A stretch of 64,000 bases of DNA from Candidatus Bathyarchaeota archaeon (GCA_963777155.1 CAVZPM010000038.1:95537-159536), one strand, 5' to 3'; counted from the first letter of the stretch, positions 18,227-64,000 are shown. Numbers and translations are program-made. Notes: a model not told the origin generated them from the letters alone.

Positions 18227-18754
18227 ATGGATGTTGCCCTGCTAGTAGTTGAAGCATTGAAATTTATTTTCCCCGCCTACTGTGCTAACGCGACGCCGGT
18301 GCTTGCAGGAGGCGGAACACGAATGGATTTTGGCAGAAACTTTGTAGATGGTAAACGGATTTTTGGCAATAACAAAACGTTTAGGGGCTTTTTTTTCGGT
18401 TGGGGTGTCGGCATAATGGTTGGGTTGGTTGAAGGCTTGGTGTTTGGTTTTCAAAATTTTCCAGTTATTTTTAGTCTACTTATCCCCTTGGGGGCGCTCT
18501 TGGGCGATTTGACGGGTGCTTTCATTAAAAGAAGATTTGGCATTGCACCAGGCGGGCTTTTGCCAATTGTTGATCAGGTTGACTTTGTGATAGGCGCCGT
18601 CGTGTTTTCATTACCTTTATCGCTTCTAGGTTGGCAAACGGCATATACGCCTTTTTGGCAAGTAATAGTTGCAGCACTGTTGATTACGCCACCTATCCAC
18701 CTTTTCACTAACTTTTGTGCTTACAAGCTAAAGTTGAAAAAACATCCATGGTAA
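18227..18754 (+). CDS. carS: CDP-archaeol synthase
   Basis: PAYCANATP, NKTFRG, GDLTGAFIKRR, DQVDF. Confidence 0.93.
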   Translation: MDVALLVVEALKFIFPAYCANATPVLAGGGTRMDFGRNFVDGKRIFGNNKTFRGFFFGWGVGIMVGLVEGLVFGFQNFPVIFSLLIPLGALLGDLTGAFIKRRFGIAPGGLLPIVDQVDFVIGAVVFSLPLSLLGWQTAYTPFWQVIVAALLITPPIHLFTNFCAYKLKLKKHPW

Positions 18755-34727: not shown

Positions 34728-34900
34728 AAACTCGCCTTGTTATGTTAGGGCTTTGCGCTATAAAGGGGTTATCAGGCTTTTGGTTTTGGAAAGAAATAAA
34801 TCATTTGATTATTTTGTAATTAGTTGCAGAGGTTTGTTTTTGCTGCGGAAAAAATCGGACGACAACCTCGTCAGAGTTCACGGATTTTGTTGGGATAAAA

Positions 34901-40073: not shown

Positions 40074-40573
40074 GGCGTTTGCCTTTTAGCTCAAGTACTA
40101 TTGATGTTTCAACTTGCCGCTTAGGAATATTCCAGTATTTCTTGAGCAGTTTATTTGTTTCCTCTCGGGAAAGCAGTTCAAACCCATGTTTCTGGTAGAA
40201 TTTTATCGCCCAAGGCGCAGCTTCCCAAGTGCCAACCAGAATCCTGTTAGTTTTTGCCAACCTTAAAAGATAGTTAAGAAGTTGCTCGCCTAAACCTTTC
40301 CGCTGATGACTTGTCAGCGTGTAGGCATGCCTGATTAATGTGACATCGTTGACAAGTTGGATGCCCATAACCGCGATTAAGGCGTTGTTTTCTGTGTAGC
40401 CATAAGAATTGGACGCCGCTTTGGATTTCTTCTTTTAACTCTTCTAGGGGCATATAGGGTTCTTTCCAGCAGTCAGCAGGAATTTTGCCCTTGTATGCAA
40501 CTGCAGCGTCGTTGACGACGGCAAGGATTGTTTGGAAGTCAGCGTCGTCAAGTTTACGGATCATATAGCTCAC
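40048..40573 (-). CDS. GNAT N-acetyltransferase (one frameshift)
   Basis: [17 protein letters not shown]; two ORFs join near 40405. Confidence 0.85.
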
Positions 40574-48816: not shown

Positions 48817-49428
48817 CTAAGGTTTCTTAGACAGCAATCGTTCTGCTAGTTGCAACTCTGGCACTGTGTTGATGTTTACTGCGAGTTCTTGGTGGTTTAA
48901 TAGGTAGATGTCTTGGTCGAGCCATTCGTCGCCGTACCGTTTGCTGCCGTCGATGACGTTTATGCCCACTGGAACCACATCAATATCGCCGAGCTTGAAA
49001 GAGTATTCAATGCACATTCCCAACTTTGTCTTGGTTTCCACCGGAACCGCCACAGTCAAAGCGGGTTTGCCACAGCGCTCATACCGTTCCACTACAGCAT
49101 CTATCATTTCGCCCTTCACCAGCGGAAGGTCAGCTGCAATAGCTAAGAAAACACCGAGTTTGAGGGTTTGGACAACGTATCCCATGTCGGAAACGTAGTC
49201 TTTGCCTGGAGTTTCGATGACTTCAACGCCGAGTTGATGCATTAGACTTGTGGTTTTGGGAGTGCAATTGCTTGTGGCAACGATTACTCGGTCGATTTTC
49301 TTGGCGTCTCTGAGCGCTAAGAGCACATATTGAATGACGGGTTTGCCGCAGACTTCAACGAGGGGCTTTTCCTGCGCCAGCTTCATACGCGTACCCTTTC
49401 CGCCAGCCATAACAAGTGCCACTACCAT
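48817..49428 (-). CDS. cobY: Adenosylcobinamide-phosphate guanylyltransferase
   Basis: ALVMAGGKGTRM, EKPL, ADLPL, NINT; start overlaps the cobS stop. Confidence 0.88.
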   Translation of the reverse strand: MVVALVMAGGKGTRMKLAQEKPLVEVCGKPVIQYVLLALRDAKKIDRVIVATSNCTPKTTSLMHQLGVEVIETPGKDYVSDMGYVVQTLKLGVFLAIAADLPLVKGEMIDAVVERYERCGKPALTVAVPVETKTKLGMCIEYSFKLGDIDVVPVGINVIDGSKRYGDEWLDQDIYLLNHQELAVNINTVPELQLAERLLSKKP

Positions 49429-50202
49429 CAAATCACCGCCAACAAAACAACCACACAAACCAGCCTTGTCAGCTCGTTTGTGGCGCCGAACACGTCGCCC
49501 GTGACGCCGTTGAAGTGCTTGTGGGCAACGGCAACCATGACTAAACCTGTGATTAAACCTGCCACCACTACGAAGATACCAGTCAAACCGAGTAGCGGTA
49601 CAGCAATTGCAAAAGAGATTACTAACGCTACAGCCAATCGGAGGTTGCCTTCTGTTCCATGCATGGCTTCCAGAAACGGCGAGTTCATGCCTTGATGCAC
49701 TGATTTGCCTGCCCAAGCAGCCACAACCATCGACAACTTCGCGCACAACTCGACTACGATCAAGGCAGGAACAACCAAGGGAACAGCAAAATTCCCGAAA
49801 GACACATTCCTTCCGAGTTCACCAAAAGCTAAAGCTGTAACTAAATAAGTTATCAAAACCAAGCCGATAGCCCCTGCACCCGTGAACCGGTCATGCATTA
49901 CCTCAATTTTACGTTCAAACGTACCGTGTGCCATGACTCCGTCGCCGAAATCCAGCAACCCATCCATGTGATGCAGACCAGTCATCCACAAAAGTACAGC
50001 CAGAACCAAAGCGCCTGCCACGATGCCAGGCAGAAAATGGTAAGTCACCCAACCAAACAACCCCGCCAACAAACCAAGTAATGCACCGATGAGAGGGAAA
50101 AGCCCACATGTTGCGGGCGCAATCAGTAAGCAAGTCCTTGTCCATAGGAACTGGGAAAACGGTTAAGAAAGAAAGAAGGTTTTTTAGCTGTTTAACGACC
50201 AA
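49428..50202 (-). CDS. cobS: Cobalamin synthase (one frameshift near 50095)
   Basis: LSFLTVFP, TGLHHMDGLLDFGDG, MHD..TGAG, GVTGDVFGA. Confidence 0.9.
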
Positions 50203-50209
50203 GCGCGCT

Positions 50210-51298
50210 TCACTTTATGTTCATCAGTGAAGCATAGTTACGCTCTATTTCCTTAAGAAGTATATCCTTGGTAACTGCGCCACCCGTCTTAGCCATCGCC
50301 GCAATCGAGGCTCCGCCTGCACCAACGCCTTCTTTGACAAGCCCAGTTTCATAGATCCGCAAGCCAGGATACTTTGAGGAACCAAAATCCAAGTCAGCCG
50401 CTATCACGGGCACTTGACAGAACTGTTTAACAATACCGCAGATGTCGGACTTGACGTCCTTTGCAACCCATCTGGTAGTGCCCACTGCAACGTTACAAAG
50501 TGATTCAGGGTTAAGGGCATTAATCACCGCCAAAACCGCAGTCATCTGGGTTCCGCCAGCCATCAAAACAGGTCCCTGCCTGGCGCCACCGATAACTAAC
50601 CCCGCCATAGCCGCCATCATTGGGTCACCCACACAAGAGACAGCTTTAAGGGGGTTGCCTTTTAGGCTACCGAATTTTTCGCCTGCCGCCTTCAATCCAG
50701 CTGCAACCACTTCTGCCTTCAAACTATGAGGATTCTCAGGCAGAGTGCTACTAACTTTGCCCTGAGCGTTAATGCCTAAAGCCGACAGAACACCGAGGGC
50801 TGTTGTGGTTCCGCCTGGAATGCTCTCACCTATAACAAGATAATCGGCCACTTTCGCTAGTTGTTCACCTAAAACCTTGCCACGCTCGATAACTTCCTCA
50901 ACATTGTCAACAGAGTTGCCGGTACGGATGTCGCGTCCAGAGTTACCACCTAAGTCAACGTAAGGAATCTGGGGCTTAACCTTCACGCCGCCGTTGACAA
51001 CCAACACTGGTATGTCGGCTAAATGCAATGCCGAGGTGGTTATCAAGCCTGGTGTCGGAATGCCGTCAGGAGTAATGGGGACCCCTTGTATGGATTTGCA
51101 CTTGCCCAACAGCAACAGTTCCGCGTCTGCTGGAGGAGTGAAATCGGTAAAATCTGGGTTTGCACCAGCGGCCGACAAACCGGGGATTTTCCCAGTTTCA
51201 GTTGTGGCAATTGTGCAGATGAAAAGAGGATTTTTGGCCTCTATCTCGTCTAGGAATGCTTTTGCTTTCAACTCGTTATTCGCAATTAGGACATCCAT
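50210..51298 (-). CDS. cobT: Archaeal nicotinate-nucleotide:DMB phosphoribosyltransferase
   Basis: GESIPGGTTTA, MAGGTQM, VKEGVGAGG. Confidence 0.92.
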   Translation of the reverse strand: MDVLIANNELKAKAFLDEIEAKNPLFICTIATTETGKIPGLSAAGANPDFTDFTPPADAELLLLGKCKSIQGVPITPDGIPTPGLITTSALHLADIPVLVVNGGVKVKPQIPYVDLGGNSGRDIRTGNSVDNVEEVIERGKVLGEQLAKVADYLVIGESIPGGTTTALGVLSALGINAQGKVSSTLPENPHSLKAEVVAAGLKAAGEKFGSLKGNPLKAVSCVGDPMMAAMAGLVIGGARQGPVLMAGGTQMTAVLAVINALNPESLCNVAVGTTRWVAKDVKSDICGIVKQFCQVPVIAADLDFGSSKYPGLRIYETGLVKEGVGAGGASIAAMAKTGGAVTKDILLKEIERNYASLMNIK

Positions 51299-51309
51299 CT
51301 TAGTTCCCT

Positions 51310-51981
51310 TTACTTGGGCACAACTTTGAACTTCTTGATTTCCAAGTGTCCAAAGCCACCCTCAAGCTTATGTTTCTGCGTTTCTTGGATTTCAATCTTG
51401 TTCTTGAAGGTGGGACCATCCGTTATGACGGTGTGGTATTCGCCACCTTCTCCGCATGCGTCCACGTTGCCAAGTTTTAGAATATCGTCATAGAACTTTC
51501 GATCTAATGTTCTACCCAGCCATTCTACGCCTAAAAGGTCCAGTTTTGTTCGGACAACGGTTGCTTTAAAGCCTGTCTTTAAGTAATCAAGATAAATCTT
51601 TTTAGTGTCACCCATCCAAAGCGGTTTTACGGCTGTTAAGCCGACTTCTTTGCATATCCGGCCCAACCAACCTTCCTCATGCCCAGCGACTTCATAGATA
51701 TCGCCCGTAACTAAGCCCTGTGCACCCTTTGCCTTGCATTCAAACAGCACTGCCTTGAAGTCCTTCTCATAGGTCGCTGCGGATGTAGTTTTCTTTATAA
51801 GTGGTATTCCTATGGCTTCTGCCTGTGCGTCTAGAATGCCTGCTGGTATCATGTGGAAATTTGATTTGGTTTCGCTCATCATCATAGTTAACAGGTTGAT
51901 TACTTGGTGACCCTGTTGGGTAGCCAATAGGTATGCGTAGGCGCTATCTTTGCCGCCACTCCATGAAGCAACAACTTTCAT
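51310..51981 (-). CDS. DUF71/Dph6-like PP-loop ATPase heading the cob operon
   Basis: SWSGGKDS, TGDI, PLW, DACGEGGEYHT; AGGAGG SD before ATG 51981. Confidence 0.85.
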   Translation of the reverse strand: MKVVASWSGGKDSAYAYLLATQQGHQVINLLTMMMSETKSNFHMIPAGILDAQAEAIGIPLIKKTTSAATYEKDFKAVLFECKAKGAQGLVTGDIYEVAGHEEGWLGRICKEVGLTAVKPLWMGDTKKIYLDYLKTGFKATVVRTKLDLLGVEWLGRTLDRKFYDDILKLGNVDACGEGGEYHTVITDGPTFKNKIEIQETQKHKLEGGFGHLEIKKFKVVPK

Positions 51982-51993
51982 ATTCAGTTTTTT

Positions 51994-52134
51994 CCTCCTT
52001 TTCATATGGGAACGTTCAAACAGACAAATAGGGCTTTGCTGGTCAAACATTCAGATAACTTGCCACAAAGTAAAACTTTGAACGATATGAGCAAGGTTTT
52101 CTTTATGTTTAACGAGTTTTCTCCCCTCTGTCTG
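51994..52134 (-). ncRNA. Candidate structured 5' leader / cis-regulatory RNA
   Basis: Four nested helices with G-U wobbles on the minus strand plus an alternative helix reaching the SD; folded by eye only. Confidence 0.45.
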
Positions 52135-52150
52135 GTTGGTTTATCCAACC
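52134..52150. promoter_or_regulatory. Palindrome just downstream of a minus-strand TATA-like box
   Basis: GGTTGG-TTTAT-CCAACC; minus-strand TTATAT at 52156-52161. Confidence 0.45.
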
Positions 52151-52229
52151 TTTTCATATAAGTATATCGGCAATTGCTGTTCACAACACTTAAAACAGTC
52201 ACCGCGACTAAAAATTAAGGTTAAACTGT

Positions 52230-52712
52230 ATGACGAAACAAACCCCGCCCCTGCTGACCTACCTTGAAGAGAGAGGCATCACACTTCAAAGCCTAATCGA
52301 AAGCGCGCTTGAAATGTATGTACCTCATCCAGGAGTAGAAACCCCTGAGAAAGCCACAAAGCTGCTTGAAGAAGAGTTTCTCGACATTCTAGAAGACGTA
52401 AACGTCTCCACGTTAATCGTTGCTGCTTTTCACGCCCAAGAAGAAGCAGAGAACGGACGGATTCCAGGGTTAACCAAAGAACGGTTTCTGGGTAGACCGG
52501 GTTTAGTTGCAGACGAACTTATCGGGATAGCCGTTGCCACCTACATCGGTGGATCCAGAGGCATGTTCGAATTTGTTCGCTTTGACCAAGCAAAACCAGG
52601 AATCCTAAAGCAGTTGCCACCCCTAACTAATGACGCGATTGGCGCTTTGGTTGCTGGCGCATCCTCGAACGTCTACACAAATGCTCTCAAGACCACAGAA
52701 GCAAAACCGTAA
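52230..52712 (+). CDS. cobZ: Alpha-ribazole phosphatase (PgpA-like CobZ)
   Basis: DVNVSTL, LVADELIG, FEFVRFDQAKPGIL; cob gene context. Confidence 0.8.
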   Translation: MTKQTPPLLTYLEERGITLQSLIESALEMYVPHPGVETPEKATKLLEEEFLDILEDVNVSTLIVAAFHAQEEAENGRIPGLTKERFLGRPGLVADELIGIAVATYIGGSRGMFEFVRFDQAKPGILKQLPPLTNDAIGALVAGASSNVYTNALKTTEAKP

Positions 52713-52803: not shown

Positions 52804-53961
52804 ATGGCTAAAAATCGGCTCTGCATTGTTACACACACTTTCTTGCCGCATGTTGGCGGAATCGAGAAGGTGGTCAATGAACAAAGCAAGCGATTGCGAA
52901 CAAGTAATTTTTCGCCCCTAATTGTGACCAACAGGATAGATACGCCTAAACGCTATGTGGTCGACGGGGTGCCTGTCCAATGCTATGAATCACTCAACAC
53001 TGGGTTCCGCCTCGGCATTCCCTATTCGATTCCGACAGTGCCTAGTTTTCCCATTTTTTTGAAAGCGGTGAAATCAAGCAAAATAGTCCATGCCCACGGG
53101 CACCCGTATTTAACCTCGCTTATTGCGTCTAAACTGTCTAAACTATACGAAAAACCGTTCGTACTCACCCAACACAACACTTTCATTGATTACAACAATG
53201 TCTTTGACCATGTTGAACGCTTAAACGATTTAACTGTAGGAAAACAAAATCTCAACGGCGCCGACAAAATCATTGCGATAAGCAATGCCACTAAAGAGTA
53301 TGTGTTAAGGTTAGGTGCAAAACCGAGCAAAGTTAAAGTTGTCTACAACGGTGTTGATTTAGCAAGGTTTCGACCAATCGCGGGAAAACGCGAAGAAATG
53401 CGCAAGAAACTTGGGATTTCCCAAAATGCAATCGTCGTCCTAACGGTGAGGCGACTGGTTTACAAGAACGGCATTGACACACTAATAGACACCGCAAGCA
53501 TAGCAGTCAAAAAAAACCCGAGAATCGTGTTTTTGGTTGTTGGGAAGGGTCCAGACCTGGGAAACGTTAAGTTGCAGGTTGCACAGTTGGGAATTGAAGC
53601 TAACTTCAGACTTACAGGCTTTGTCAGCGATGAAGATTTGCCTTCGTACTACAATGTTGCTGACTTGTTTGTTTTGCCTTCTAAATCTGGTGAAGGATTA
53701 CCGTTGGTAGCGCTTGAAGGCATGGCGTGTGGACTCCCAGTTATAGCCACAGATGTTGGTGGAATAAGAGAAATCCTGAGGGAAGATTATGGGAAGTTGG
53801 TCGCGCCTAACCAGCCTGAGCTGCTAGCGGAAGCAGTTTTGGATTTTGCAACGGTTGATTTCTCCTCACGCAGTGAGGAGCTTAGAGTTATGGTTGAGAA
53901 ACGGTTCAGCTGGGATGCAAACGTTAAAAGACTTGTCGAAATATACGAAGAGCTTATTTAA
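52804..53961 (+). CDS. Family 4 glycosyltransferase
   Basis: PHVGGIE, VYNGVD, EGLPLVALEGMACG. Confidence 0.93.
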   Translation: MAKNRLCIVTHTFLPHVGGIEKVVNEQSKRLRTSNFSPLIVTNRIDTPKRYVVDGVPVQCYESLNTGFRLGIPYSIPTVPSFPIFLKAVKSSKIVHAHGHPYLTSLIASKLSKLYEKPFVLTQHNTFIDYNNVFDHVERLNDLTVGKQNLNGADKIIAISNATKEYVLRLGAKPSKVKVVYNGVDLARFRPIAGKREEMRKKLGISQNAIVVLTVRRLVYKNGIDTLIDTASIAVKKNPRIVFLVVGKGPDLGNVKLQVAQLGIEANFRLTGFVSDEDLPSYYNVADLFVLPSKSGEGLPLVALEGMACGLPVIATDVGGIREILREDYGKLVAPNQPELLAEAVLDFATVDFSSRSEELRVMVEKRFSWDANVKRLVEIYEELI

Positions 53962-54000: not shown

Positions 54001-54741
54001 GTGCCGATGACGTCAAAAGTTGAAATGGTTTCAGTGGTAATTCCAACACTCAACGAAGCAGGAAACATTCTGGAAGCCGTCTCTACAATTCACAATGATT
54101 TGTCTTATCCTAAGGAAATCATCGTCGTTGACGGAAACTCTACGGATGGCACCAAAGAAATAGTTCAAGGCTTAGGCTACTGCAGGCTCATAGTTGAACC
54201 TAGACGCGGCTATGGCTTAGCGCTTATGACAGGCATGAAGAACGCCAAAGGCAACATCATAGTTATGGTTGACGGCGACGGAACCTACGAGGTACGCCAC
54301 ATTCACAGAATGATAAATAAGATGATTGAGAAAGACGCCGACATGGTACTAGCCACCCGCATGTATGACCCCAACAAAGCCATGGGACTCATGAATTTCA
54401 TCGGCAACAAAGTCATCACAACATTTTACGATTTCTTCTTCAGCCAATTCCTCAGCGACACCCAATCCGGTTTTAGGGCAATCTCCCACGAAGCCATCAA
54501 CAATGTGGAACTCAAAGCATACGACATGGCTTACGCCACGGAGATGCTCATACAATTCGCCAAAGAAGGCTTCAGCATGATTGAAGTTCCCACAACCTAC
54601 AAAGCCCGAAAGTATGGTCGCCCCAAGCTGAGAAGGTTTAAGTCTGGAATTGAGATATTTAGCACTATATTTAGGGGATTTCTGGATGCGGATACATTTA
54701 GAAAGTGCCAAGAGAATTGGAAACAGAATCGGTTTAAATGA
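54001..54741 (+). CDS. Family 2 glycosyltransferase (DPM1-like)
   Basis: VIPTLNE, VVDGNSTDGT, DGDGTY, DTQSGFR. Confidence 0.92.
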   Translation: MPMTSKVEMVSVVIPTLNEAGNILEAVSTIHNDLSYPKEIIVVDGNSTDGTKEIVQGLGYCRLIVEPRRGYGLALMTGMKNAKGNIIVMVDGDGTYEVRHIHRMINKMIEKDADMVLATRMYDPNKAMGLMNFIGNKVITTFYDFFFSQFLSDTQSGFRAISHEAINNVELKAYDMAYATEMLIQFAKEGFSMIEVPTTYKARKYGRPKLRRFKSGIEIFSTIFRGFLDADTFRKCQENWKQNRFK

Positions 54742-55216
54742 GGAAAAAGGCTTTGCAATCGGTATTTTTCTTGCATTGATAATTGTTATCGCTGTGATTG
54801 CAGGCTTCTTTGCCTATAGTGCACTTACCGCAAAGCCAGTGGGCTACAACACGATTTACTTGCTTGACGCAAACAAAAAAGCAGTCGATTACCCCCAAAC
54901 CTTAGTTGCTAATCAGAATAGCACCTTTAGCGTTTATGTCGACGTGGAAAACCACATGAGAGACACCGCAGTCTACCAGGTGAAGGTAAAAATTGCACAG
55001 AGCCTTACCACGTTTCCAATTGACGCCCCGCCAAATCAAACCATAGATATGGGCAGCATAACGAATGATGGGAAACCCTTGGAGAAAACAGTGACCATCA
55101 CCCAGAACGTTTTGGGGGACTACTCGTTTGTTTTTGAACTCTGGCAACAAGGCAGTGACGGCTCACTCATCTTTACTCAGAACTACTGCGTCCTAAAAAT
55201 CCAAGTCACTAACTAA
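54686..55216 (+). CDS. Membrane-anchored Ig-like (DUF1616-like) protein
   Basis: TM helix, then IYLLD....DYP, VENH, FVFELW; start uncertain. Confidence 0.65.
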   Translation: MRIHLESAKRIGNRIGLNEEKGFAIGIFLALIIVIAVIAGFFAYSALTAKPVGYNTIYLLDANKKAVDYPQTLVANQNSTFSVYVDVENHMRDTAVYQVKVKIAQSLTTFPIDAPPNQTIDMGSITNDGKPLEKTVTITQNVLGDYSFVFELWQQGSDGSLIFTQNYCVLKIQVTN

Positions 55217-55290: not shown

Positions 55291-56772
55291 TTAGTTTTCG
55301 ACAGTCAGGCTTTTCTTGTGTCTAGCCGCATATTCTTTTTCTATCGCAACCCGATGAACGTTGTTGTATGCGCAAAACGGAATAATCTTTAGATCAGGTG
55401 TTATATAGTGTACGACGCATCGCCTTACGCGGTTAACGTCGAAGTTGTAGGAGTCCATAAATGCCATGCAACCCAACAGGAAGATTCTTCTCCGGATTTT
55501 ACCAAGCGACTGATAAGACGGCGAAAGATGCATTCGCATGATTGACTTCATCAGTGTTGGCATACCAACTTCTTTTGTAACTAAGAACATATCCATCGAA
55601 AGCATCGAAGCCATGAAAAGAGACGAAAGCAAAGACAGTTTACCTTTGGACTCAGCTGACTCAGCCGTTTTGCGAATGCTGTTAAAGAACCTGTCGAAGT
55701 TTACGAAGCGATTAATTGGAAACATTTTTCCGCTCTTTGAAACGTAAACCCAGTTGACAATTCCGCATTGTGGACTGCAGGAGAACAGCGGCCAAGGTTT
55801 CTGCATGAATTTGCGCATAATTTTAATGGGTGAAGTCATCACCGACATCGGATAAAGATCCGTCGATTTTATTGCGCCGTTTGTTTGTTTTTCGACGTCT
55901 TCGGCAAAGCTCCATTCCCGGAAGTTTTCGCGGAAGGGATTCTCCGTCGCTCTGCCAGTGAAGGCAATAGGTTGGAAGATTAAGCCTCGGACAATGTCAG
56001 TGTTTTTGGCGGCGAAGCGGATCATATCGCCGACTTCCTTATCGTTGAGGCTCTTCATTAAAGTGTTGACGAGGATGATTTCCATATCGTGGGCGCGGCA
56101 AACATCAATTGCCTTAAGCTTCATATCTAAAAGCTCTCGACCCCTAATCTTCCTATTGAAGTCTTCATGAAAGCTATCAAACGATAAATAAACAATGTTT
56201 AAGCCGTTATCTTTAAGCTTCTTCGCCAACCCAGGAGTATCAACCAAATGTGTTCCATTAGTTGCCAGAATAGTCATAAACTTAAGTCTGTGAGCAGCAG
56301 CAATGATTTCAGGCATATCTTCCCGCTCAAGAGGTTCTCCGCCTGAGAACAGAATTGCGGGGGGTTTAGGGTTAGCTTTAGCCGCGAACTCGAGCATGTT
56401 TATGAGGGCTTCTTTGGTAGGTTCATAATCTGCTTCTTGATCAGGAAAAGTGGAGAAGCAAACCGCACACCTGAAGTTGCAGCGTTTAGTTACATCAATT
56501 ACGCCGATAACTGTGCCTGAAGCGTGTTTGTCGCAGGTTTCACATTTGTATGGGCACCCGTCGGGGTTTTTGGGCGCGTTGAGGTCGCCGAGATACTGGA
56601 ACTGGTCGTATTTTTGCATGTGATTGTATATTGGTGTGCTTTGCCAGTGGGTAGCTTTGAAATCGCCATGCTCGGGACATTGTTTTGTGATTTGGATTTT
56701 GCCGTTTGCTTCCCGTAGTTGAGCGTCTATTTTCTTTTGGCATTCGGGACAGATGCTTTTGGTTTCGCTCAT
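55291..56772 (-). CDS. Radical SAM enzyme of the tetraether synthase (Tes/GDGT-MAS, MJ0619) family
   Basis: CPEC...CPEHG, CPYKCETCDKH, CNFRCAVC, FQPIAFTGR, CMAFMDSYNFD..RVRRCVVHY..PD..IIPFCAYN. Confidence 0.88.
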   Translation of the reverse strand: MSETKSICPECQKKIDAQLREANGKIQITKQCPEHGDFKATHWQSTPIYNHMQKYDQFQYLGDLNAPKNPDGCPYKCETCDKHASGTVIGVIDVTKRCNFRCAVCFSTFPDQEADYEPTKEALINMLEFAAKANPKPPAILFSGGEPLEREDMPEIIAAAHRLKFMTILATNGTHLVDTPGLAKKLKDNGLNIVYLSFDSFHEDFNRKIRGRELLDMKLKAIDVCRAHDMEIILVNTLMKSLNDKEVGDMIRFAAKNTDIVRGLIFQPIAFTGRATENPFRENFREWSFAEDVEKQTNGAIKSTDLYPMSVMTSPIKIMRKFMQKPWPLFSCSPQCGIVNWVYVSKSGKMFPINRFVNFDRFFNSIRKTAESAESKGKLSLLSSLFMASMLSMDMFLVTKEVGMPTLMKSIMRMHLSPSYQSLGKIRRRIFLLGCMAFMDSYNFDVNRVRRCVVHYITPDLKIIPFCAYNNVHRVAIEKEYAARHKKSLTVEN

Positions 56773-57649
56773 AGTAACCATCCAAGGATTGCCTCAACGA
56801 TGAGTGCAAGTGGCAACAGCATCATTGACATCGTTACCAACCGCTCATACTTCCGTATATTCTGTATGGTTGAACTTGAGGTAAATAACCGAGCAGACGA
56901 ATAAATTAAGAGAGCACTCCAGATCAGAATCAACGGAAGATAATAAATTGTGAAGTGGCCTAAAAAGGAAGGCAATGGCGCAAGTAACCCTGTAATAAGG
57001 AAGAATATTCCGCCGATTTTAGCTGCGCTGACCGTGCCGATTTTCTGTGGCAGCGTGGGGTAACCAACTTTGGAGTCACCTTCAATACTGAATATGTCTC
57101 GGAGCACGTTGCCGCCTATGGTACCAAAAGCAATGGGATAAAGACTTAGCGAGATCAAGGTTTATTGTGCCCATTGACGGTTGCTTGCCCGATAAACGAA
57201 TGCAGTGCCCGTCAGGATGCCCACCAAAACGTTTGCCGCAAAACCAGACTTTCGTTTTACCAAATAGGAGTAAATCAGAAGCAGACAGCGAATCAGCAGC
57301 GATTATTGCGAAGCTTAACCAGTTTATGAAGCAGCCATAACTAAGCCAAGGGCGAAAAACACTGCCGAAACAGCCACGACTTGTTTTAGTGATAGTGCAC
57401 CAGCAGGTATAGGACGTTTGGGTTTTATGACTGCGTCGCTTTCACGGTCAAAATAATCGTTTATGGCAAATCCAGCTGATGTGATGAATGCCATGGAGAA
57501 GAAAATCAAGAGAGCAGTTTGTATGTTCATGACTTATAGGGTCTTTTAAGATGGCAAATGCTGTTAAGAGCTGCTAAGCCGCCAGTCATTAGCCAGTAGG
57601 GAAGTCGTAGTAGCGCGATTAAGCCTCTGGCTGGCGTTGGATGGCTCAT
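56769..57649 (-). CDS. UbiA-family prenyltransferase, DGGGP-synthase-like (several frameshifts)
   Basis: NDYFDRESDAVIKPKRPIPAG; RDIFSIEGDSKVGYPTLP; ATGA overlaps with both neighbours. Confidence 0.8.
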
Positions 57650-58581
57650 ATGCTGATTTTCCTGTCAGCGATAACTTCCTTTATGCTGTCTTCCAAGGTT
57701 ACTTTTGGAGTCCATTTGAGTTCTTTTTTGGCTTTGGAGATGTCAAACCAGATTTTGGTTACATCGCCCTGCCAGGAGACACCCGTGGTTGTAATGACGG
57801 TTTTGTTTTGGAGGTTAAGGATAGTTAGCATAATTTTGGCTAATTCAAGTATGGATACGGTTTTGCCGAGACCTAAGTTGTAGACTTCACCGTTAGCTGA
57901 GTCTTTTGAACCAACCATAGTTAAGGCCTCCACGACGTCGGAAACGTGGACAAAGTCGCGGCATTGCTGACCTGTACCGATGATTACTAGTTTGTTTGGA
58001 TCTTTAGCTATCTTGTCTAGGAAATCATGGATGACTCCGTGACAGCGCAGTCCATAAACGTTAGCGAACCTTGTGATGACTATGTCTAAGCCGTATTGTT
58101 CACGGTACATTTGGCAGTATTCTTCGCCGACTACTTTGGATAAACCATAGCATGAGAATGGGTGAAAACCATATGCTTCAGGAGTTGGAAAGACAGTTGG
58201 GTTACCATATACTGCAGCGCTGGAAGCAAATACTACTTTAGCATCGTCCTTACGTGCTTTTTCTAGAACATGGAGGGTGCCTTTGGCGTTTGTTTCAAAA
58301 TCAACAAGCGGATTCTCCATCGAGTACCCGACAACAACTTGCGCTGCTAAATGATAAATCAAATCAGCCTTCGCTTGACTACACAACGTTTTGAGGTCTA
58401 AGATGTCGCCTTTGACAAATTTGGCGTTTGGAACATCTTGGACGTTCTTCATGGTGCCGCTTGACAAGTTATCAAAAATGGTCAAGTTATCGGTTAATTT
58501 TGCAAGTTTGCTACATAAGTGGTAGCCTATGAATCCTGCTCCACCAGTAACTAGCACTTTTTTCCCTTTCAAGTCAGCCAT
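57646..58581 (-). CDS. NAD-dependent NDP-sugar epimerase/dehydratase
   Basis: TGGAGFIG, HLAAQ, SSAAVYG, YGLSK, RDFVHV. Confidence 0.93.
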   Translation of the reverse strand: MADLKGKKVLVTGGAGFIGYHLCSKLAKLTDNLTIFDNLSSGTMKNVQDVPNAKFVKGDILDLKTLCSQAKADLIYHLAAQVVVGYSMENPLVDFETNAKGTLHVLEKARKDDAKVVFASSAAVYGNPTVFPTPEAYGFHPFSCYGLSKVVGEEYCQMYREQYGLDIVITRFANVYGLRCHGVIHDFLDKIAKDPNKLVIIGTGQQCRDFVHVSDVVEALTMVGSKDSANGEVYNLGLGKTVSILELAKIMLTILNLQNKTVITTTGVSWQGDVTKIWFDISKAKKELKWTPKVTLEDSIKEVIADRKISI

Positions 58582-58629
58582 CCAAATCACGACAAAACCT
58601 ATATTCCCTATCTGTAAGGTTGTAAGTAT

Positions 58630-59488
58630 ATGTCGCCTGTGAAAACTATAAAAACTTTTAGGGATTTGCTGTCTTTCCTCACCATTATTCCAGTCGGAGG
58701 AAAAGAAGACTTCATTTTCACAACGGCAGAGAACATGTGGCTTTTTCCACTCATCGGCGGCTTCATCGGTTTGCTTGGCGCAGCTTACTTTGTCGGCTCA
58801 AGCATCATCGTTGCGTTTCTTTTGGGTTTAGCTAATAGCTTTGTAGCTTTACCCGTTGGGCTTTTGGGAACCCTGATTCCCGCAGCCATGACTATAGCTT
58901 TCCTAAGCGTAATAACTGGACTGCAGCATTTCGACGGCTTAATCGATTTGGGAAACGCTGTTGGCTTAAGAAATGTTCAGGACCGAAAAATGAAGGCGCA
59001 TGCATGGACAGTTACAAGTGCTGGTGCAGTACTGGCGTTAGTCGTTGAGTTTTTGGCGTTTGCAGGTTTATTCTTAACTAACTGGCTAACACTGAACATA
59101 ACGACGAATTTGTTGTCTTGTTTTTTCAGTAATATTTTTGGCTGAGGTTTCAGCTAAGCTTTCAATGGTGACAATTGTTTGGGTTGGCAAACCCTCACAT
59201 AAAGGGTTAGGCTCGATTTTTCTTGCGAAAGCCAAAAAGAAACTCAACTTCGTAGCCTACTTAATGTCTCCCTTGATTGTTTACCCAGTTTTCTACTTTT
59301 CAGGTTACCCAATAGCTGGTCTAGCCGCAATTGCCTTAGTGTTTGCTAGCATTCCAGTGGCATACGTGATGAACAAGGTTTCCAACAGCGTCTTCGGCGG
59401 CGTTTCGGGCGACATGATTGGAGCAACCAACGAGGTTGCAAGGGCAGTTGTGCTGGTTTTGTTTGCGGTGGTGCTGATTCTAATATGA
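58630..59488 (+). CDS. Second, divergent CobS-family protein (frameshift near 59100-59140)
   Basis: LSFLTIIP, TGLQHFDGLIDLGN, GGVSGDMIGATNE. Confidence 0.82.
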
Positions 59489-60108
59489 AGGTTCCTGCAC
59501 TTGTGATGGCTGGCGGAAAAGGTTCAAGGATGGGTTTGTCAACGGAGAAGCCGTTGTTGCCGTTTCTGGGTAAACCGCTGATTGATTGGGTAGCAGAAGC
59601 AATCTTGGACGCAAAGAAGGTTTCCGAGTTCTACGTCATAACGAGTGCGAACGCAACACAAACTGAACAACACTGCCAAAGCAAAGGGTGGAAGGTCCTG
59701 CATACAGACGCTAAAGGCTACCACAACGACCTAAAACAAGCCGTTTCGATGGCAAATCTGACTGGACCAGTGCTCACCATGCCTTCAGATGTCCCAGCCA
59801 TAACGGGACAGGTGCTTGACAAAATCGTCGATGCCTTTGAGGTCTGCGGAAAAGATTTCTTAGCGGTTTTTGTCCCTATCAAAGCAAGGCAGGATTTGGG
59901 CTTATCGATTTCCTCCACCGACGAATACAAGGGAGTATGGTACGCTGTTTCAGGAGTCAACATCATAAACGGCACCAAAATCCTCGGCGAAGGCAAAATC
60001 GAAACAAGCGCCATAATCACAGACGAAACCGAGGTTCTGCTAAACATCAATACAACCAAAGATCTGGAAATAGCCCAAAACATTATGCTGAAAACAAAGA
60101 AGCACTAA
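59485..60108 (+). CDS. Second CobY/MobA-like nucleotidyltransferase
   Basis: ALVMAGGKGSRM, EKPL, SDVP, NINT. Confidence 0.85.
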   Translation: MKVPALVMAGGKGSRMGLSTEKPLLPFLGKPLIDWVAEAILDAKKVSEFYVITSANATQTEQHCQSKGWKVLHTDAKGYHNDLKQAVSMANLTGPVLTMPSDVPAITGQVLDKIVDAFEVCGKDFLAVFVPIKARQDLGLSISSTDEYKGVWYAVSGVNIINGTKILGEGKIETSAIITDETEVLLNINTTKDLEIAQNIMLKTKKH

Positions 60109-60112
60109 AGCG

Positions 60113-61454
60113 CTATGAATATGCTGTTAACTGAAGATCTGACGCCACAAACACCATGTTACCTGACAGCACTGGCGCCAGAAGGTAATGGTCGAAACGC
60201 TGATTTCTGGCCACACCACCGTTTGAAGCGCTAAGAACCCAAAGAGCACTGTTCTCGTTGAGATATACAGTATCCTTGTTAACAACTAAACCAGCAGAAA
60301 AACCAAAGAAGACTCCGCTGTCTTCTAATTGTCTATTCCATAACAGCTTTCCACTTGATAAGTCAAGACTGCATACAACTCCAGCATAACGGTCATGTTT
60401 GTTTTCACTTGATGTTCCAAGTTGCTGGGTTACGCCAAAACTCCAGTACACCCGATTATTTTGGACTTGGATAGGATATGCAGTAAGGGTTATGTTGCCG
60501 TTGTTGACTGTGGACATGAGTTTTTGGCTGTCGACACTAGTTTTCCACTGGATCAATCCGTTTGAGAGGTTTAACCCGTAGAAGTAGCCATCTGAAGCGC
60601 CAAATAACAAAAGGTTATTGTTGGCTGTTGGTGGGTATATCGATGCACCGAGGTCGTTGTGCCAAAGGTACTCGCCGGAGCTTTGGTTGAGGCTTAAGAT
60701 TTGGGTGCCGCTCTCTACGACAACTTGCCCTTTATAGGTTGTCAGAACGCTCGGAATGCCAGCGAAAGAAGTAAGGTTACTACGCCATATTATGCTGCCG
60801 TTATCGGTGTTTAACTTGAAAATATTTGCGTTTGACTCGTTGCCTCCCAAAGCATAGACCAAATTGCCTTCAAATGGGTCTCCTCCCAGAGGATAGCCAG
60901 CTACCCACCAGGTTTTAGAGTCAGAGATGTTCCCAAAAATGTCGAAACGGTAGGGCGTTTGCCAGAGAATCTGCCCGGTGGAAGCATTAAGGGCTGCAAC
61001 GCCTGCTGCGGGACCTTCTGAAACCACAAACAAACGACCATCCTTGACGATCAGGCTATCAGGTGCTTGATTAACGCCAGCAGTATTCATGTGGCTCCAC
61101 TGAAACTGCCCTGTTGCCTCATCCAAACAGCCCACTGAGGCGTAATGGAACCCGCCATAGACCCTACCCTCACCAACAGTAAGACCCTCCGCGAAGTAGC
61201 CGCCGACGCTGCTGCCGTTCCAGATGGATGCGCCAGTTTGCTGGTTGTAGCAGTTTACGTTGCCAGAAATATCCATAGTGAAGACTTTGCCGTCGTCAGT
61301 GGATAAAGCGGTGGCGAAGTTTGGGATATCGCGTTGCCAAACCTCATGGGAGCCCTCGGGGTTTAGGACGCTGTTAGCGTAGATTACCATCGAGGAAACA
61401 ACTATGATTGCAGACCAAGCCTATTGCAATAATCAGTATATTGCGTCTTTTCAA
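60113..61454 (-). CDS. Secreted PQQ-like/BamB-type beta-propeller protein (signal peptide frameshifted)
   Basis: Repeated (A/C)L(N/D)xxxG..xW blades; MKRRNILIIAI signal from TTG 61454. Confidence 0.85.
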
Positions 61455-61627: not shown

Positions 61628-63052
61628 ATGAGCATCCTTAGCCACGACACATTCTGGAACGCAGTCATCTCCCTGCCAATGACTAAGAAGATGCTCCAAC
61701 TCTCGCTAAAAAAATGCGGCAAATGTGGCAGAACAGTCCTTGAAGCAGCTTTGGATGATTACGGCGGCAAAACCGACCGCAAATGCGACAAATGCAGCGG
61801 TTTGTACTCTCAGATTATCGGTTTCTGGATAGAGTTCCTCCGAAAAGGCCTCGGATTTAAGCGTGAGAAAGCCGAGAAACTCTTAACTGACCGATATGCA
61901 CGAGCAGCGGTTATAAATTTGGTTCAATCATTTGATTATTTTGGCATCAAAAAACCCATTTCGCTGACTGCGCCGTTTCTGGTGGTTTGGGATTTCACTC
62001 ACAAATGCAACTTACAGTGCAAACACTGCTACAGTAACAGCGGCGCTGTGGAGGAAGAGGAGTTGTCCACTAAGCAGGCTTTGGCGGTTGTCGATCAATT
62101 AGCCGATGCACACGTGACGGCTCTGGCTTTCTCGGGAGGAGAACCTCTCACGCGCAAAGACTTCTTTCAAGTTGCGCGACATGCCTCCGACCGCGGACTC
62201 TACGTTTCGCTGGCTTCCAACGGCACGCTCCTCACCAAAGAAAACGTAGCTAAAATTAAAGAAGCCAAAGTCAACTACATCGACGTCAGCATCGACGGCG
62301 CCTGTGCTAAAACCCACGATGACTTCCGCGGGGTTCCAGGCACCTTTGACAAAGCTATTGCAGGACTCAAAAACTGCGTTGAAGCGGATCTTTGCGTCTG
62401 CATCGCGACTACTGTTGGTAAGAACAACATGGCTGAGCTGCCTGCCATTATCGATTTAGCCGAGAAAATCCATGCGGAACGCTTCACCTACTTCAATTTT
62501 ATCCCGACTGGACGCGGCAAAGCCCACTTCGACCAAGACCTCTCACCGCAGGAACGCGAGGACGTTATGCGTTATCTGCTGAATCGGATGTCAGCGGGCT
62601 GCAAAACAACCATCCTAGCCACGGCGCCCCAATTAGCTCGCGTCGCCTTGCAATGTCAGGGTCCAGCGGGAACAGACGAAGTCACCATGTCAATGGCTCA
62701 CATGCAAACCGTCAAAGTCACAAAAAAAGCCGTCCCCCTTGGCGAATTCATCGGCGGATGCGGCGCAGGAAGACTCTACTGCTCAATCTCACCACAGGGC
62801 GATGTCCACCCGTGTGTATTTTTGCCCGTGAACGTCGGGAACCTGAAGACAGAAAAGTTCCAGGACATCTGGCTAAACGCGCCGCTGTTCAAATCCTTCC
62901 GCAACCGAGCAAACCTTAAGGGTACCTGCGGCAAATGCACCTACAAATTCATCTGCGGCGGCTGCCGAGCACGTTCCGCAGCATACCACAGTGGAGACAT
63001 GTTAAACGGCGACCCCGGATGCCTCCAAGGAGTGAAGTCAAAACATGCCTAA
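61628..63052 (+). CDS. Radical SAM/SPASM protein with N-terminal CxxC...CxxC
   Basis: CNLQCKHC, SGGEPL, CGAG..C..PC...CGKC....CGGCRA...DPGC. Confidence 0.92.
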   Translation: MSILSHDTFWNAVISLPMTKKMLQLSLKKCGKCGRTVLEAALDDYGGKTDRKCDKCSGLYSQIIGFWIEFLRKGLGFKREKAEKLLTDRYARAAVINLVQSFDYFGIKKPISLTAPFLVVWDFTHKCNLQCKHCYSNSGAVEEEELSTKQALAVVDQLADAHVTALAFSGGEPLTRKDFFQVARHASDRGLYVSLASNGTLLTKENVAKIKEAKVNYIDVSIDGACAKTHDDFRGVPGTFDKAIAGLKNCVEADLCVCIATTVGKNNMAELPAIIDLAEKIHAERFTYFNFIPTGRGKAHFDQDLSPQEREDVMRYLLNRMSAGCKTTILATAPQLARVALQCQGPAGTDEVTMSMAHMQTVKVTKKAVPLGEFIGGCGAGRLYCSISPQGDVHPCVFLPVNVGNLKTEKFQDIWLNAPLFKSFRNRANLKGTCGKCTYKFICGGCRARSAAYHSGDMLNGDPGCLQGVKSKHA

Positions 63053-64000
63053 CCCACACAAAGTCACGATTTACCGTGCAGGAGACGACGTAAGCAGCAT
63101 CGTCGCCCAAGCCGTCGCCGACTCAGGGTTACATGGCAAAAGAAAGATTTTCATAAAGCCAAACCTTAGCCACCCCGAATACTTGCCAGGCGTAGTAACA
63201 AGCCCACAGGTTATGCATCAACTCGTCGGGCTATTAAGGGACGGCAACAGCGAAGTTGTCGTAGGCGAATCCAACGGCTTTAACTATCCCTGCTGGACCG
63301 CGTTTGACAAAACAGGCATGCAGAAAGCCGTGGAATCCGCAGGCGGCAAAGCCATCAACCTCTCCGAAGACAAAGTGGTCGAAGTCAAATTCCCAGACGG
63401 CTGCCCCCTCAAACGGCTGTTTCTACCAAAAACTGTGCTGGACGCCGATGCCGTAGTCGATTTACCCTTGATGAAGACGCATGAGTTTATGGCTTACAGC
63501 GGCGCCATCAAAAACCTCTTCGGCTGCGTACCCAGCAACAAACGCATCTACCTTCACCCCTACCTGCCTGAAGTCATGTACCGACTCTACTCGCTTTTCA
63601 AGCCGCAACTAACCATAATGGATGCACGAATCGGCATTGAGGGCAACGGACCCACCAAAGGCAAACCTGTCAAGATGGATTTGATGCTTACCGGCAATGA
63701 CGCTTTAGCGGTGGACATAGTCGCCGCAAAAGTAATGATGTTGGACTGGAAAAAAACCTACCTTGGCTACATCGCCAACAAGACTGGCATGCGCGAGGAA
63801 GACATCGGCATCGATGGCTTGCAGGTGGCGGAGGTTGCACGCAAATTTGAGCCACCCAGAATCGATTTGCCCGTGAAGGCACAGATGATGATTTACCAAC
63901 ATGAATACCTAACAAAAGCGCTTTTCTGCTCACTAGACATAGTAAAGCTGTTTCAAAAGGTCACAATGGCTTATCGAGGTACACCTGTCGAAATTGGGTA
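63045..64000 (+). CDS. DUF362 family protein (runs to window edge)
   Basis: IKPNL, GES, LPLMKTH, AIKNLFG, EGNGP, ALAVD; start overlaps the rSAM stop. Confidence 0.88.
   Translation, partial: MPNPHKVTIYRAGDDVSSIVAQAVADSGLHGKRKIFIKPNLSHPEYLPGVVTSPQVMHQLVGLLRDGNSEVVVGESNGFNYPCWTAFDKTGMQKAVESAGGKAINLSEDKVVEVKFPDGCPLKRLFLPKTVLDADAVVDLPLMKTHEFMAYSGAIKNLFGCVPSNKRIYLHPYLPEVMYRLYSLFKPQLTIMDARIGIEGNGPTKGKPVKMDLMLTGNDALAVDIVAAKVMMLDWKKTYLGYIANKTGMREEDIGIDGLQVAEVARKFEPPRIDLPVKAQMMIYQHEYLTKALFCSLDIVKLFQKVTMAYRGTPVEIG

Follow-up and report, generated by a model that had tools for sequence, protein, structure and literature searches.

The window analysed here, a stretch of 64,000 nucleotides from a Candidatus Bathyarchaeota archaeon, contains a minus-strand operon of three genes (55291-58590, read directly in the sequence) in the order GalE-like epimerase, UbiA/DGGGPS-like prenyltransferase (UbiA2) and Tes-like radical SAM protein (Tes2). 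UbiA2 and Tes2 are diverged paralogues of DGGGP synthase (DGGGPS) and tetraether synthase (Tes); they co-occur, and both the operon and its neighbours are conserved. With about even confidence we regard the locus as a second module for ether-lipid cores that is specific to certain lineages and probably serves the synthesis of a glycosylated lipid spanning the membrane. The observations behind this reading are the paralogy, the separate clades, the co-occurrence, the operon and its neighbours, the catalytic motifs and one invariant change in the active site of UbiA2.

In soils and sediments Bathyarchaeia rank with the most abundant archaea, yet little of the genetics behind their membrane lipids has been worked out. 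DGGGP synthase attaches a second isoprenoid chain to geranylgeranylglyceryl phosphate (GGGP); tetraether synthase, a radical SAM enzyme, links two isoprenoid chains end to end via a C-C bond. The co-inherited second pair of these enzymes spans soil and peat lineages as well as a genus of subgroup 8 to which the cultivated Bathyarchaeum tardum belongs, and it forms a discrete operon that could be expressed in Methanosarcina or Thermococcus, the systems employed so far for Tes, Gms, Ted and Hgs. Should the pair make a distinctive core lipid, this would provide a sedimentary biomarker tied to a gene and show a diversification of both Tes-type radical chemistry and UbiA-type prenyl transfer; should it only duplicate GDGT synthesis, it would be an ordinary paralogue pair.

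Organization of the locus and the interrupted UbiA2 frame

The first gene of the operon encodes a GalE-like NAD-dependent sugar-nucleotide 4-epimerase of the SDR type (57646..58590, minus strand; 314 aa when counted from a GTG, an ATG at 58578 being the likelier start). Its stop codon overlaps the start of UbiA2 (56769..57649, minus strand) in an ATGA at 57649-57646, and a second ATGA at 56772-56769 joins the stop of UbiA2 to the start of Tes2 (55291..56772, minus strand). Both overlaps, which the initial annotation had reported for three minus-strand genes, can be read in the sequence. An alternative in-frame ATG of Tes2 lies upstream at 56781 and would give 496 aa; since the orthologues begin with MSETKS, we place the start at 56772 within the ATGA overlap (493 aa). 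Plus-strand genes converge on the operon: a GT4 glycosyltransferase (52804..53961; Pfam Glycos_transf_1 141.9 bits, Glyco_transf_4 76.4 bits), a GT2 of the polyprenyl-phosphate hexose transferase type (54001..54741; Pfam Glycos_transf_2 97.9 bits) and, between GT2 and Tes2, a DUF1616-type single-pass membrane protein (54650..55216; Pfam DUF1616 35.7 bits). Divergent from the operon lies a plus-strand CobS-like gene, which is split here (58630-59145 and 59138-59488) with Pfam CobS matching both halves, together with a CobY-like nucleotidyltransferase (59485-60108, plus strand; Pfam NTP_transf_3).

The epimerase belongs to the extended SDRs and has the GxxGxxG and YxxxK motifs (Pfam Epimerase 189.7 bits, GDP_Man_Dehyd 200.8 bits). 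Its best NCBIfam match, GalE (TIGR01179), gives 174.5 bits and stays under the cut-off of 262.3; the best solved relatives are the archaeal or thermophile UDP-glucose 4-epimerase-like proteins 3ICP, 3EHE and 4ZRM (E 7e-54 to 5e-50). For the GT2, NCBIfam AglJ (153 bits) and Dol-P hexose transferase (98.5 bits) are likewise both under cut-off. The sugar genes therefore resemble archaeal GalE-type UDP-hexose 4-epimerases (3ICP, 3EHE), AglJ/Dol-P-hexose GT2 and GT4 enzymes at the family level and have the usual cofactor motifs; they differ in falling below the equivalog cut-offs and in being linked to lipid-core enzymes instead of an oligosaccharyltransferase. GT2, GT4 and DUF1616 genes are typical also of protein and cell-surface glycosylation clusters, and this, together with AglJ as the best GT2 model, is a point against a role in lipid-core synthesis.

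The UbiA2 frame is interrupted in this assembly: the first ~37 codons lie in another frame, and the remainder contains four in-frame TAA codons that result from short out-of-frame stretches. That UbiA2 is not an open frame in this genome has to be counted against a second lipid core. Of 53 related loci, 51 have an open UbiA2. A comparison with two congeners shows 6 of ~40 nearby genes, both CobS genes included, to be split in this assembly; we therefore infer that the breaks are likely assembly errors. Were UbiA2 a true pseudogene, Tes2 and the epimerase alone would stay intact in this genome. Such decay, which we consider rather unlikely, is suggested by the clustering of one net frame change and four TAA codons in 880 bp next to flanking genes of 1.5 kb and 0.95 kb without any, by our estimate more breaks than the local split-gene rate predicts for a single gene. 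The split neighbours however point to a general indel problem, and the many intact relatives speak against decay as well. Moreover, the UbiA2 DNA of this genome shares 79% identity with its nearest orthologue, inside the range of 75-92% among the intact ones, at which level (75-80%) pairwise gap counts are too noisy to count indels. In a metagenome contig of 152 bases, which has 12 mismatches, the two extra bases at 57532 and 57571 are absent. Four DNA runs from soil, wetland and peat yielded short contigs of relatives only, with the UbiA stretch barely covered.

Motifs and active sites of Tes2 and UbiA2

Tes2 passes the NCBIfam cut-off for Tes marginally (NF045702, 464.4 bits, cut-off 450), compared with 668.4 bits for the other copy in the genome, and aligns collinearly over its full length with PDB 7TOL (E 1.7e-111). 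The sites of GDGT-MAS have been defined as CX2C..CX2H, CX3CX2C plus His, a further CX3CX2C and a C-terminal cluster with a labile Met (Lloyd 2022). The window protein has all four metallocofactor sites, and they do not vary across an alignment of 16 Tes2 sequences: the rubredoxin CxxC..CxxH, the N-terminal CxxxCxxC with its His, the SAM CxxxCxxC, and the C-terminal Cys with the equivalent of Met439. Tes2 also retains the equivalent of Tyr459 and, in the SAM-binding loop, the Gln/Arg. In agreement with the initial annotation, which had listed the Tes/GDGT-MAS motifs as kept, we found CPEC..CPEH, CPYKCETC, CNFRCAVC, GCMAFMDSYNFD, RCVVHY and PFC in the 496-aa protein. The MJ0619 motifs it had given are correct according to the 7TOL alignment (HQHCG vs SPQCG, RCCIHY vs RCVVHY). 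As a distinguishing mark RCVVHY has to be dropped, since canonical Bathyarchaeia Tes also have RCG or RCV. Differences to the canonical proteins are SPQCG in place of HxHCG and MAFMD in place of MHFMD.

Tes2 thus shares the four cofactor sites and the SAM-binding loop with known Tes/GDGT-MAS enzymes (MJ0619, 7TOL/7TOM; MA_1486; Saci_0703). It differs in being ~40% identical to the canonical copy of the same genome, in belonging to a long-stemmed clade of two families and in its translational coupling to UbiA. The formation of biphytanyl C-C bonds, in a GDGT or a macrocyclic archaeol, is its putative activity. A protein atlas search returned Tes-like clusters alone and no structure model, and the prediction of a complex of Tes2 and UbiA2 from alignments scored 0.00, which is no call either way. 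A comparison of head-group residues between Tes2 and GDGT-MAS was ruled out, GDGT-MAS having no direct head-group contacts. According to the structure paper head groups are bound non-specifically, and canonical Tes could therefore already handle varied lipids, which counts against a separate lipid-core module. Methanosarcina acetivorans likewise carries an extra Tes-family copy, MA_1114, beside a functional Tes. According to Zeng 2022, two Tes copies occur in 22 of 322 methanogen genomes, and MA_1114 yielded only traces of macrocyclic archaeol and no GDGT; the portions of the source used here mention no UbiA partner. We found no described Tes paralogue with a UbiA partner in the literature, the supplementary tables of Zeng 2022, Hou 2023 (table S3) and Dong 2025 lying outside this scope.

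When read through the four TAA codons UbiA2 matches Pfam UbiA with 101.5 bits, and the separate pieces match as well. For the intact orthologue of genome G001 (300 aa) all scores are under the NCBIfam DGGGPS cut-offs: 173.8 bits for PRK12884 (cut-off 269), 162.4 for PRK12882 (cut-off 296) and 108.1 for the remaining model of PRK12882/12883/12884 (cut-off 353). The same holds for the presumed canonical DGGGPS of the genome (230.8 vs 269). The best PDB match of the G001 protein is MjDGGGPS (6M31, E 7.5e-32), and among the listed matches of a homologue search with UbiA2 there were close relatives only.

Aligned to MjDGGGPS, motif 1 (NDxxDxxxD, N-D-x2-D-x3-D) and motif 2 (Y..K) are shared and invariant in alignments of 17 and 51 UbiA2 sequences. 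In addition to its low scores, UbiA2 differs from MjDGGGPS in motif 3, which reads DxxSxxxD and not DxxDxxxD (Mj D180, D183, D187); the RDIFSIEGD noted earlier as the second Asp motif is indeed found in the window's gene. Ser occupies the D183 position in 51/51 intact UbiA2 copies and in 14/14 of a second set, in contrast to 16/16 canonical DGGGPS-like proteins of Thermoproteota examined, in which the Asp is kept. Ala mutants of the motif-3 Asp residues of MjDGGGPS, including D183A, are strongly reduced in activity (review PMC9385802). Because all 51 intact copies carry this Ser, UbiA2 may possibly be no DGGGP synthase at all, and the Ser is a further point against the lipid-core assignment. 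The equivalents of N62 and Y125, an Asn and a Tyr placed near the glycerol of GGGP (review PMC9385802), are invariant in UbiA2. With these residues kept, and no result pointing to a sugar- or polyol-derived backbone, this part of the initial annotation is not supported.

Copy number, distribution and conserved neighbourhood

The genome has two Tes-family genes, the canonical one at C1:34413-35834 (668 bits) and Tes2 (464 bits), and three UbiA genes, namely a DGGGPS-like gene at C8 (231 bits, PRK12884), a MenA-like gene at C7 and UbiA2. GGGPS and CarS are present once each. Tes2 proteins form a clade (9 rows, SH-aLRT 100, stem 0.85) that excludes the canonical Bathyarchaeia Tes, and UbiA2 proteins form one of their own (14 rows, SH-aLRT 99, stem 1.98). 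Within both clades the copies of families f1 and f7 are reciprocally monophyletic. Tes2 has no orthology to functionally proven Tes, as it groups apart from the canonical copy of its own lineage; a common origin of the two within the class was not rejected (p-AU 0.093). Together with the canonical copies elsewhere in the genome and the conserved synteny, these separate clades bear out the idea of a dedicated paralogous module. Two conditions under which the initial annotation would have fallen, sole copies of Tes and DGGGPS that group with canonical orthologues and a lack of conserved synteny, were checked and do not apply.

Tes2 occurs in 76 of 401 Bathyarchaeia genomes, with 65/103 in f1 and 10/18 in f7, all ten of the latter belonging to genus g16; the other Bathyarchaeia families sampled among these 401 genomes gave no match. 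In 301 Thermoproteota genomes, matches at the level of UbiA2 (at least 47% identity) were found only in f1 and g16, the next best reaching 36%. Where f1 genomes were sampled for both genes (n = 16), 11 contained Tes2 as well as UbiA2 and 5 neither. In these samples the pair is restricted to two families of one Bathyarchaeia order. Only one full-length protein among 1.84 billion cluster representatives is >40% identical to Tes2.

UbiA is the direct neighbour of Tes2 in all 22 congeneric loci compared, in L035 and also in a second family. Stop and start of UbiA2 and Tes2 share a 4-nt NTGA in 45 of 51 loci. At canonical Tes, neither UbiA nor an epimerase lies within 1.5 kb (6/6 loci). The UbiA2-Tes2 arrangement is far beyond chance. 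GT4, DUF1616, UbiA2 and Tes2 are common to both families despite an inversion of the gene order, and the proposed link to GT4/GT2 holds also in f7, in which all genes are codirectional. In ten loci of 18 kb we found GT4 copies (45-66% identical) beside the module in nine and DUF1616 in all ten (the match in L076 is not displayed). DUF1616 travels with the module in both families, the B. tardum copy scoring 57.1 bits, and GT2 beside GT4 is conserved in f1 loci and L071. The proposed coupling to a sugar-nucleotide epimerase stands only in part: the genes are joined by overlap here, but the epimerase is missing in two of the ten loci (L069, L074) and is therefore not obligatory. This absence is another point against the lipid-core reading. 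A CobS/CobY-like pair lies at or near the module in 10/10 of these loci as a putative member; the intact CobS of G001 scores 110.8 bits (TIGR00317, cut-off 110). Since cobamide genes surround the module (CobT, two CobS, CobZ and CobY), the conserved neighbourhood may partly reflect linkage, not function. No B12 radical SAM gene was found in the 18 kb surrounding the Bathyarchaeum copy, and the contig of the window stops shortly after DUF362.

Proposed function and alternative readings

In the reading that we prefer, UbiA2 and Tes2 would be made together through the overlapping stop and start codons and would most likely act on a lipid pool apart from the housekeeping archaeol/GDGT pool of canonical DGGGPS and Tes. 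As the genome has a single copy each of GGGPS and CarS, the branch point of the pathway is probably GGGP. The GalE-like epimerase, the Dol-P-hexose-transferase-like GT2 and the GT4 would probably supply and attach hexose head groups, resulting in a glycosylated membrane-spanning lipid, either tetraether or macrocyclic. The substrates, the product and the roles of the glycosyltransferases we infer.

A simpler explanation would be an isofunctional spare set, which makes the same DGGGP and GDGT or macrocyclic archaeol under other conditions or regulation, the glycosyltransferases being ordinary glycolipid or glycoprotein genes. Tes2 is above the Tes cut-off, aligns end to end with 7TOL and keeps every cofactor motif, the best families and solved relative of UbiA2 are DGGGPS, and a duplication inside the lineage was not rejected. 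We nevertheless consider a spare set unlikely: the stems of both clades are very long, UbiA2 misses all DGGGPS cut-offs and has the invariant Asp-to-Ser change, and no GDGT was obtained with the second Tes homologue of M. acetivorans (Zeng 2022). Nearly all 24 congeners retain the canonical and the second copy of each enzyme together, which speaks against redundancy. The missing D183 equivalent and the low scores would also suit six genes that build a cell-surface glycoconjugate or its lipid anchor or carrier, such as a lipoglycan anchor or prenylated sugar, and not a bulk membrane lipid. UbiA2 would then prenylate an acceptor other than GGGP and Tes2 cross-link the product. UbiA-family members group by acceptor, not by donor (review PMC9385802), and UbiA2 is a separate clade; in addition, the GT2 is matched best by the AglJ and dolichyl-phosphate hexose transferase models, and GT4, GalE-like epimerase and DUF1616 genes are typical of glycan clusters. 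The families and structure nearest to UbiA2 are still DGGGPS, however, the residues near the glycerol of GGGP are invariant, and in the literature examined characterised Tes-type enzymes act on membrane lipids, making a glycoconjugate quite improbable.

Apart from the preferred second core module, we considered butanetriol and pentanetriol tetraethers (BDGT/PDGT). That the UbiA2-Tes2 pair and the sugar genes are the genetic basis of an unconventional Bathyarchaeia tetraether, with BDGT/PDGT as the leading candidate, UbiA2 as a DGGGPS variant for an altered backbone and Tes2 giving an asymmetric tetraether, appears decidedly unlikely. Very doubtful is the stricter version, by which the module determines backbone-modified BDGT/PDGT, with UbiA2 taking a methylated glycerol backbone and Tes2 coupling it to a normal diether or modifying the backbone itself. 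An asymmetric lipid would explain why a dedicated enzyme for the second ether bond is paired with a dedicated coupling enzyme. Against it, the module is far commoner in the soil and peat family f1 and so is not specific to the BDGT genus. Methanomassiliicoccus luminyensis is the other known BDGT producer, and no member of the Tes2 clade with >40% identity was found outside these lineages among the cluster representatives. To our knowledge no methyl-transfer activity has been described for Tes-type enzymes. BDGT formation has been ascribed to enzymatic methylation of the backbone (Coffinet 2022; 2025 preprint), and an old methylase annotation was rejected in the GDGT-MAS structure paper. In favour of BDGT, the one lineage besides f1 that has the module is genus g16, whose record titles read Candidatus Bathyarchaeum, a genus given as GTDB BIN-L-1 and former subgroup 8. 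Subgroup 8 corresponds to Baizosediminiarchaeum (Hou 2023), which would make the two names one genus, and BDGT is described as a lineage-specific biomarker of subgroup 8 (Dong 2025, cited in PMC12694404 and PMC13003381). With subgroup 8 as the reported producer, BDGT is a candidate product of the module, though one of low probability.

Gene layout and reading frames

The initial annotation had described three minus-strand genes coupled by ATGA overlaps, with GT4 and GT2 genes converging on them. Reading the window sequence directly bore out this arrangement: A GalE-like SDR epimerase gene (57646-58590, 314 aa; Pfam Epimerase/GDP_Man_Dehyd), the UbiA-family gene UbiA2 (56769-57649; Pfam UbiA matches to its pieces) and the radical SAM gene Tes2 (55291-56772/56781, 493/496 aa; Radical_SAM, HMPTM zinc ribbon and NF045702) lie on the minus strand, and ATGA is found at 57649-57646 and 56772-56769, so that the stop of each gene overlaps the start of the next. 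GT4 (52804-53961), GT2 (54001-54741) and a gene for a DUF1616 membrane protein (54650-55216) are located on the plus strand and head toward the 3' end of Tes2.

The first ~37 codons of UbiA2 are in one frame and the remainder in another, the latter with four in-frame TAA stops that stem from short out-of-frame stretches. An intact UbiA2 frame of 265-332 codons is present in 51 of 53 related loci (52 genomes). Altogether 6 of ~40 genes in the window (34898-36273, 39016-40085, 40084-40564, 49464-50214, UbiA2 itself at 56772-57649, and 58618-59443) are split into 2-3 frames each in comparison to their counterparts in the congeneric genomes G001 and G012, which are single open frames. This suggests an indel-prone assembly. 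At the DNA level UbiA2 shares 79% identity with its closest orthologue, against 75-92% for the intact orthologues and theirs; its divergence does not exceed what is usual for a fast-evolving gene. Furthermore, a soil-metagenome contig aligned over 152 bases with 12 mismatches lacks the extra base that UbiA2 carries at each of positions 57532 and 57571. Several observations therefore point to assembly error. Since the 880 bp of UbiA2 hold more breaks than expected from the local rate, true decay of the module in the species is conceivable, but in view of the other split genes, the ordinary divergence and the metagenome contig we consider it rather unlikely. The question is orthogonal to the function of the module.

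Paralogues, distribution and synteny

A dedicated paralogous module had been proposed, and the count of Tes and UbiA homologues in the genome agrees with this. A second Tes (C1:34413-35834; 668 bits) is ~40% identical to Tes2. Three UbiA genes are present: a DGGGPS-like gene at C8 (230.8 bits on PRK12884), a MenA-like gene at C7 and UbiA2. Polyprenyl synthase homologues number four. GGGPS and CarS each occur as a single copy, the latter at 18242-18751, ~37 kb from the module; thus only the enzymes for the second ether bond and for chain coupling are duplicated. Tes2 and UbiA2 are a paralogous pair distinct from the housekeeping genes.

A quick maximum-likelihood analysis of 73 Tes-family proteins gave a tree with an unresolved backbone, in which Tes2 forms a clade of 9 rows (SH-aLRT 100, stem 0.85) comprising the window protein with its congeners, a group of ~70% identity and a group of ~46% identity; canonical Bathyarchaeia Tes is placed outside. 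UbiA2 likewise forms its own clade (14 rows, SH-aLRT 99, stem 1.98), within which the copies of two Bathyarchaeia families, f1 and f7, are reciprocally monophyletic. Both genes are separated from the canonical orthologues in the trees. Constraining Tes2 to group with canonical Bathyarchaeia Tes cost 25.2 log-likelihood units (AU test, p-AU 0.093, for a group chosen after inspection of the tree), and by these sequences a duplication inside Bathyarchaeia as the origin of Tes2 is not rejected.

Among 1.84 billion cluster representatives one full-length protein is more than 40% identical to Tes2 (46%), the rest at most 37%. A Tes2-level match was found in 76 of 401 Bathyarchaeia genomes: 65 of 103 in f1, 10 of 18 in f7, plus the genome of the window, and none in any other family sampled. 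All 10 carriers in f7 belong to one genus, g16. UbiA2 follows the same pattern, with matches of at least 47% identity in f1 and g16 only and a next best of 36% (301 Thermoproteota genomes). Of the 16 f1 genomes sampled for both genes, 11 have both and 5 neither. The g16-type copies belong to Candidatus Bathyarchaeum, including the complete genome of B. tardum M17C-01; this genus is listed as GTDB BIN-L-1, family BA1, order B26-1, former subgroup 8 (PMC10477458). Some near-identical Tes2/UbiA2 proteins (P0018, P0340, P0363, P0364) and the locus L094 come from contigs assigned to bacterial MAGs (Acidoferrales, Ignavibacteria, Bacillota); the simplest explanation is that these contigs are from Bathyarchaeia and were mis-binned.

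All 22 congeneric loci have UbiA next to Tes2, as does the Bathyarchaeum locus. An epimerase gene accompanies the pair in 21 of the 22; the single exception stops short of where that gene would lie. Within 1.5 kb of canonical Tes, UbiA and epimerase were absent in 6 of 6 loci. Synteny across Bathyarchaeia holds for two families: ten 18-kb loci, drawn from both, share the gene set GT4-(GT2)-DUF1616 / Tes2-UbiA2-(epimerase), and two of them (L069, L074) lack the epimerase. In the f1 loci the GT genes are convergent with the operon, and the Bathyarchaeum loci have all genes closely packed in a single direction. A 4-base overlap (NTGA) between the UbiA2 stop and the Tes2 start occurs in 45 of 51 loci. 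Second Tes copies as such are already known in methanogens: Zeng 2022 gives two copies in 22 of 322 methanogen genomes, and reports that the second homologue MA_1114 yielded no GDGT. In the literature, supplementary files aside, no report of coupling between a Tes paralogue and a DGGGPS paralogue was found.

Catalytic motifs and candidate pathway

With the NCBIfam Tes model NF045702 (cut-off 450) Tes2 reaches 464.4 bits, and it aligns end to end with the GDGT-MAS structure 7TOL (E 1.7e-111). Invariant in 16 Tes2 sequences are the rubredoxin-type CX2C..CX2H, the N-terminal CX3CX2C with its His, the SAM CX3CX2C, the Met439 equivalent in CM, the Q..R SAM loop and the Tyr459 equivalent. Thus every metal, SAM-loop, Met439 and Tyr459 element defined in the parts consulted of the GDGT-MAS structure paper (Lloyd 2022) is retained. 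The differences from MJ0619 given in the initial annotation (HQHCG versus SPQCG; RCCIHY versus RCVVHY) match the 7TOL alignment. As marks of the clade they fared unequally: SPQCG in place of HxHCG is clade-specific, as is MAFMD in place of MHFMD, whereas RCV was rejected because canonical Bathyarchaeia Tes also reads RCG or RCV.

The best solved relative of UbiA2 is MjDGGGPS (E 7.5e-32). Like it, UbiA2 keeps NDxxDxxxD and the Y..K motif, as well as the Asn and Tyr placed near the GGGP glycerol in the portion consulted of a review (PMC9385802). In contrast, the central Asp of motif 3 (D183 in MjDGGGPS) is Ser in all 51 copies, whereas Asp is kept in 16 of 16 canonical DGGGPS-like proteins examined; D183A strongly reduces activity of MjDGGGPS according to the same review. 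Archaeal UDP-glucose 4-epimerase-like structures are the closest matches of the epimerase, and AglJ/Dol-P-hexose transferase models those of GT2. UbiA2, the epimerase and GT2 all score below equivalog cut-offs.

We consider it an even prospect that this second lipid module leads to a glycosylated membrane-spanning lipid apart from the housekeeping pool. GGGP would be the branch point, UbiA2 may attach the second chain or work on a modified acceptor or donor, and Tes2 would couple the chain termini of its product. The epimerase would supply UDP-hexose, which GT2 and GT4 could then transfer. Two other readings remain: UbiA2 and Tes2 as an isofunctional spare set, and the module as a pathway for a cell-surface glycoconjugate or anchor.

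That the module determines butanetriol or pentanetriol tetraethers (BDGT/PDGT) seems improbable to us. Outside f1 only the subgroup-8 genus Bathyarchaeum has it, and BDGTs are described as a biomarker of the subgroup-8 genus Baizosediminiarchaeum (Dong 2025 as cited in PMC12694404 and PMC13003381). Methanomassiliicoccus is the other known producer of BDGTs. We infer that the two genera are one lineage, since both are subgroup 8 and both have genomes from lignin enrichments. However, the module occurs far more widely in the soil family f1. Moreover, BDGTs reportedly arise by backbone methylation, going by the title of Coffinet's 2022 study, and to our knowledge methylation is known for no Tes-type enzyme. 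Backbone methylation is also given in one sentence of a 2025 preprint.

Cobamide genes and further neighbors

A cobamide nucleotide-loop gene set flanks the lipid module on both sides (49428-52712 and 58630-60108): CobS2 (49428-50214), CobT/DBI_PRT (50210-51298) and CobZ (52230-52712) on one, a second CobS paralogue (58630-59488) and CobY (59485-60108) on the other. Both CobS paralogues are frameshifted in this assembly, and the locus L068 has two CobY-like genes besides two CobS paralogues. The CobS-like/CobY-like pair always adjoins or lies near the module. Cobalamin synthesis in Bathyarchaeia is described as specific to subgroup-6/5bb and subgroup-8 genera (Hou 2023), plausibly the same two lineages as the module carriers; the shared distribution may therefore partly reflect physical linkage to the cobamide genes.

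In B. tardum (L072, 6689-8119) a pyridine nucleotide-disulfide oxidoreductase gene is located on the opposite strand between Tes2 and CobS/CobY; no counterpart was seen at that place in f1. At 61628-63998 lie a radical SAM/SPASM gene (AhbD/NirJ-like, below cut-offs) and, after it, DUF362, within which the contig terminates. Both are kept downstream of CobY in f1 loci (L069, L070, L073, L074) and not in Bathyarchaeum loci. A PQQ-like beta-propeller gene (60113-61390, minus strand) separates CobY from the radical SAM/SPASM gene; it is absent at the corresponding place in L070 and L073 and looks like a genus-level insertion.
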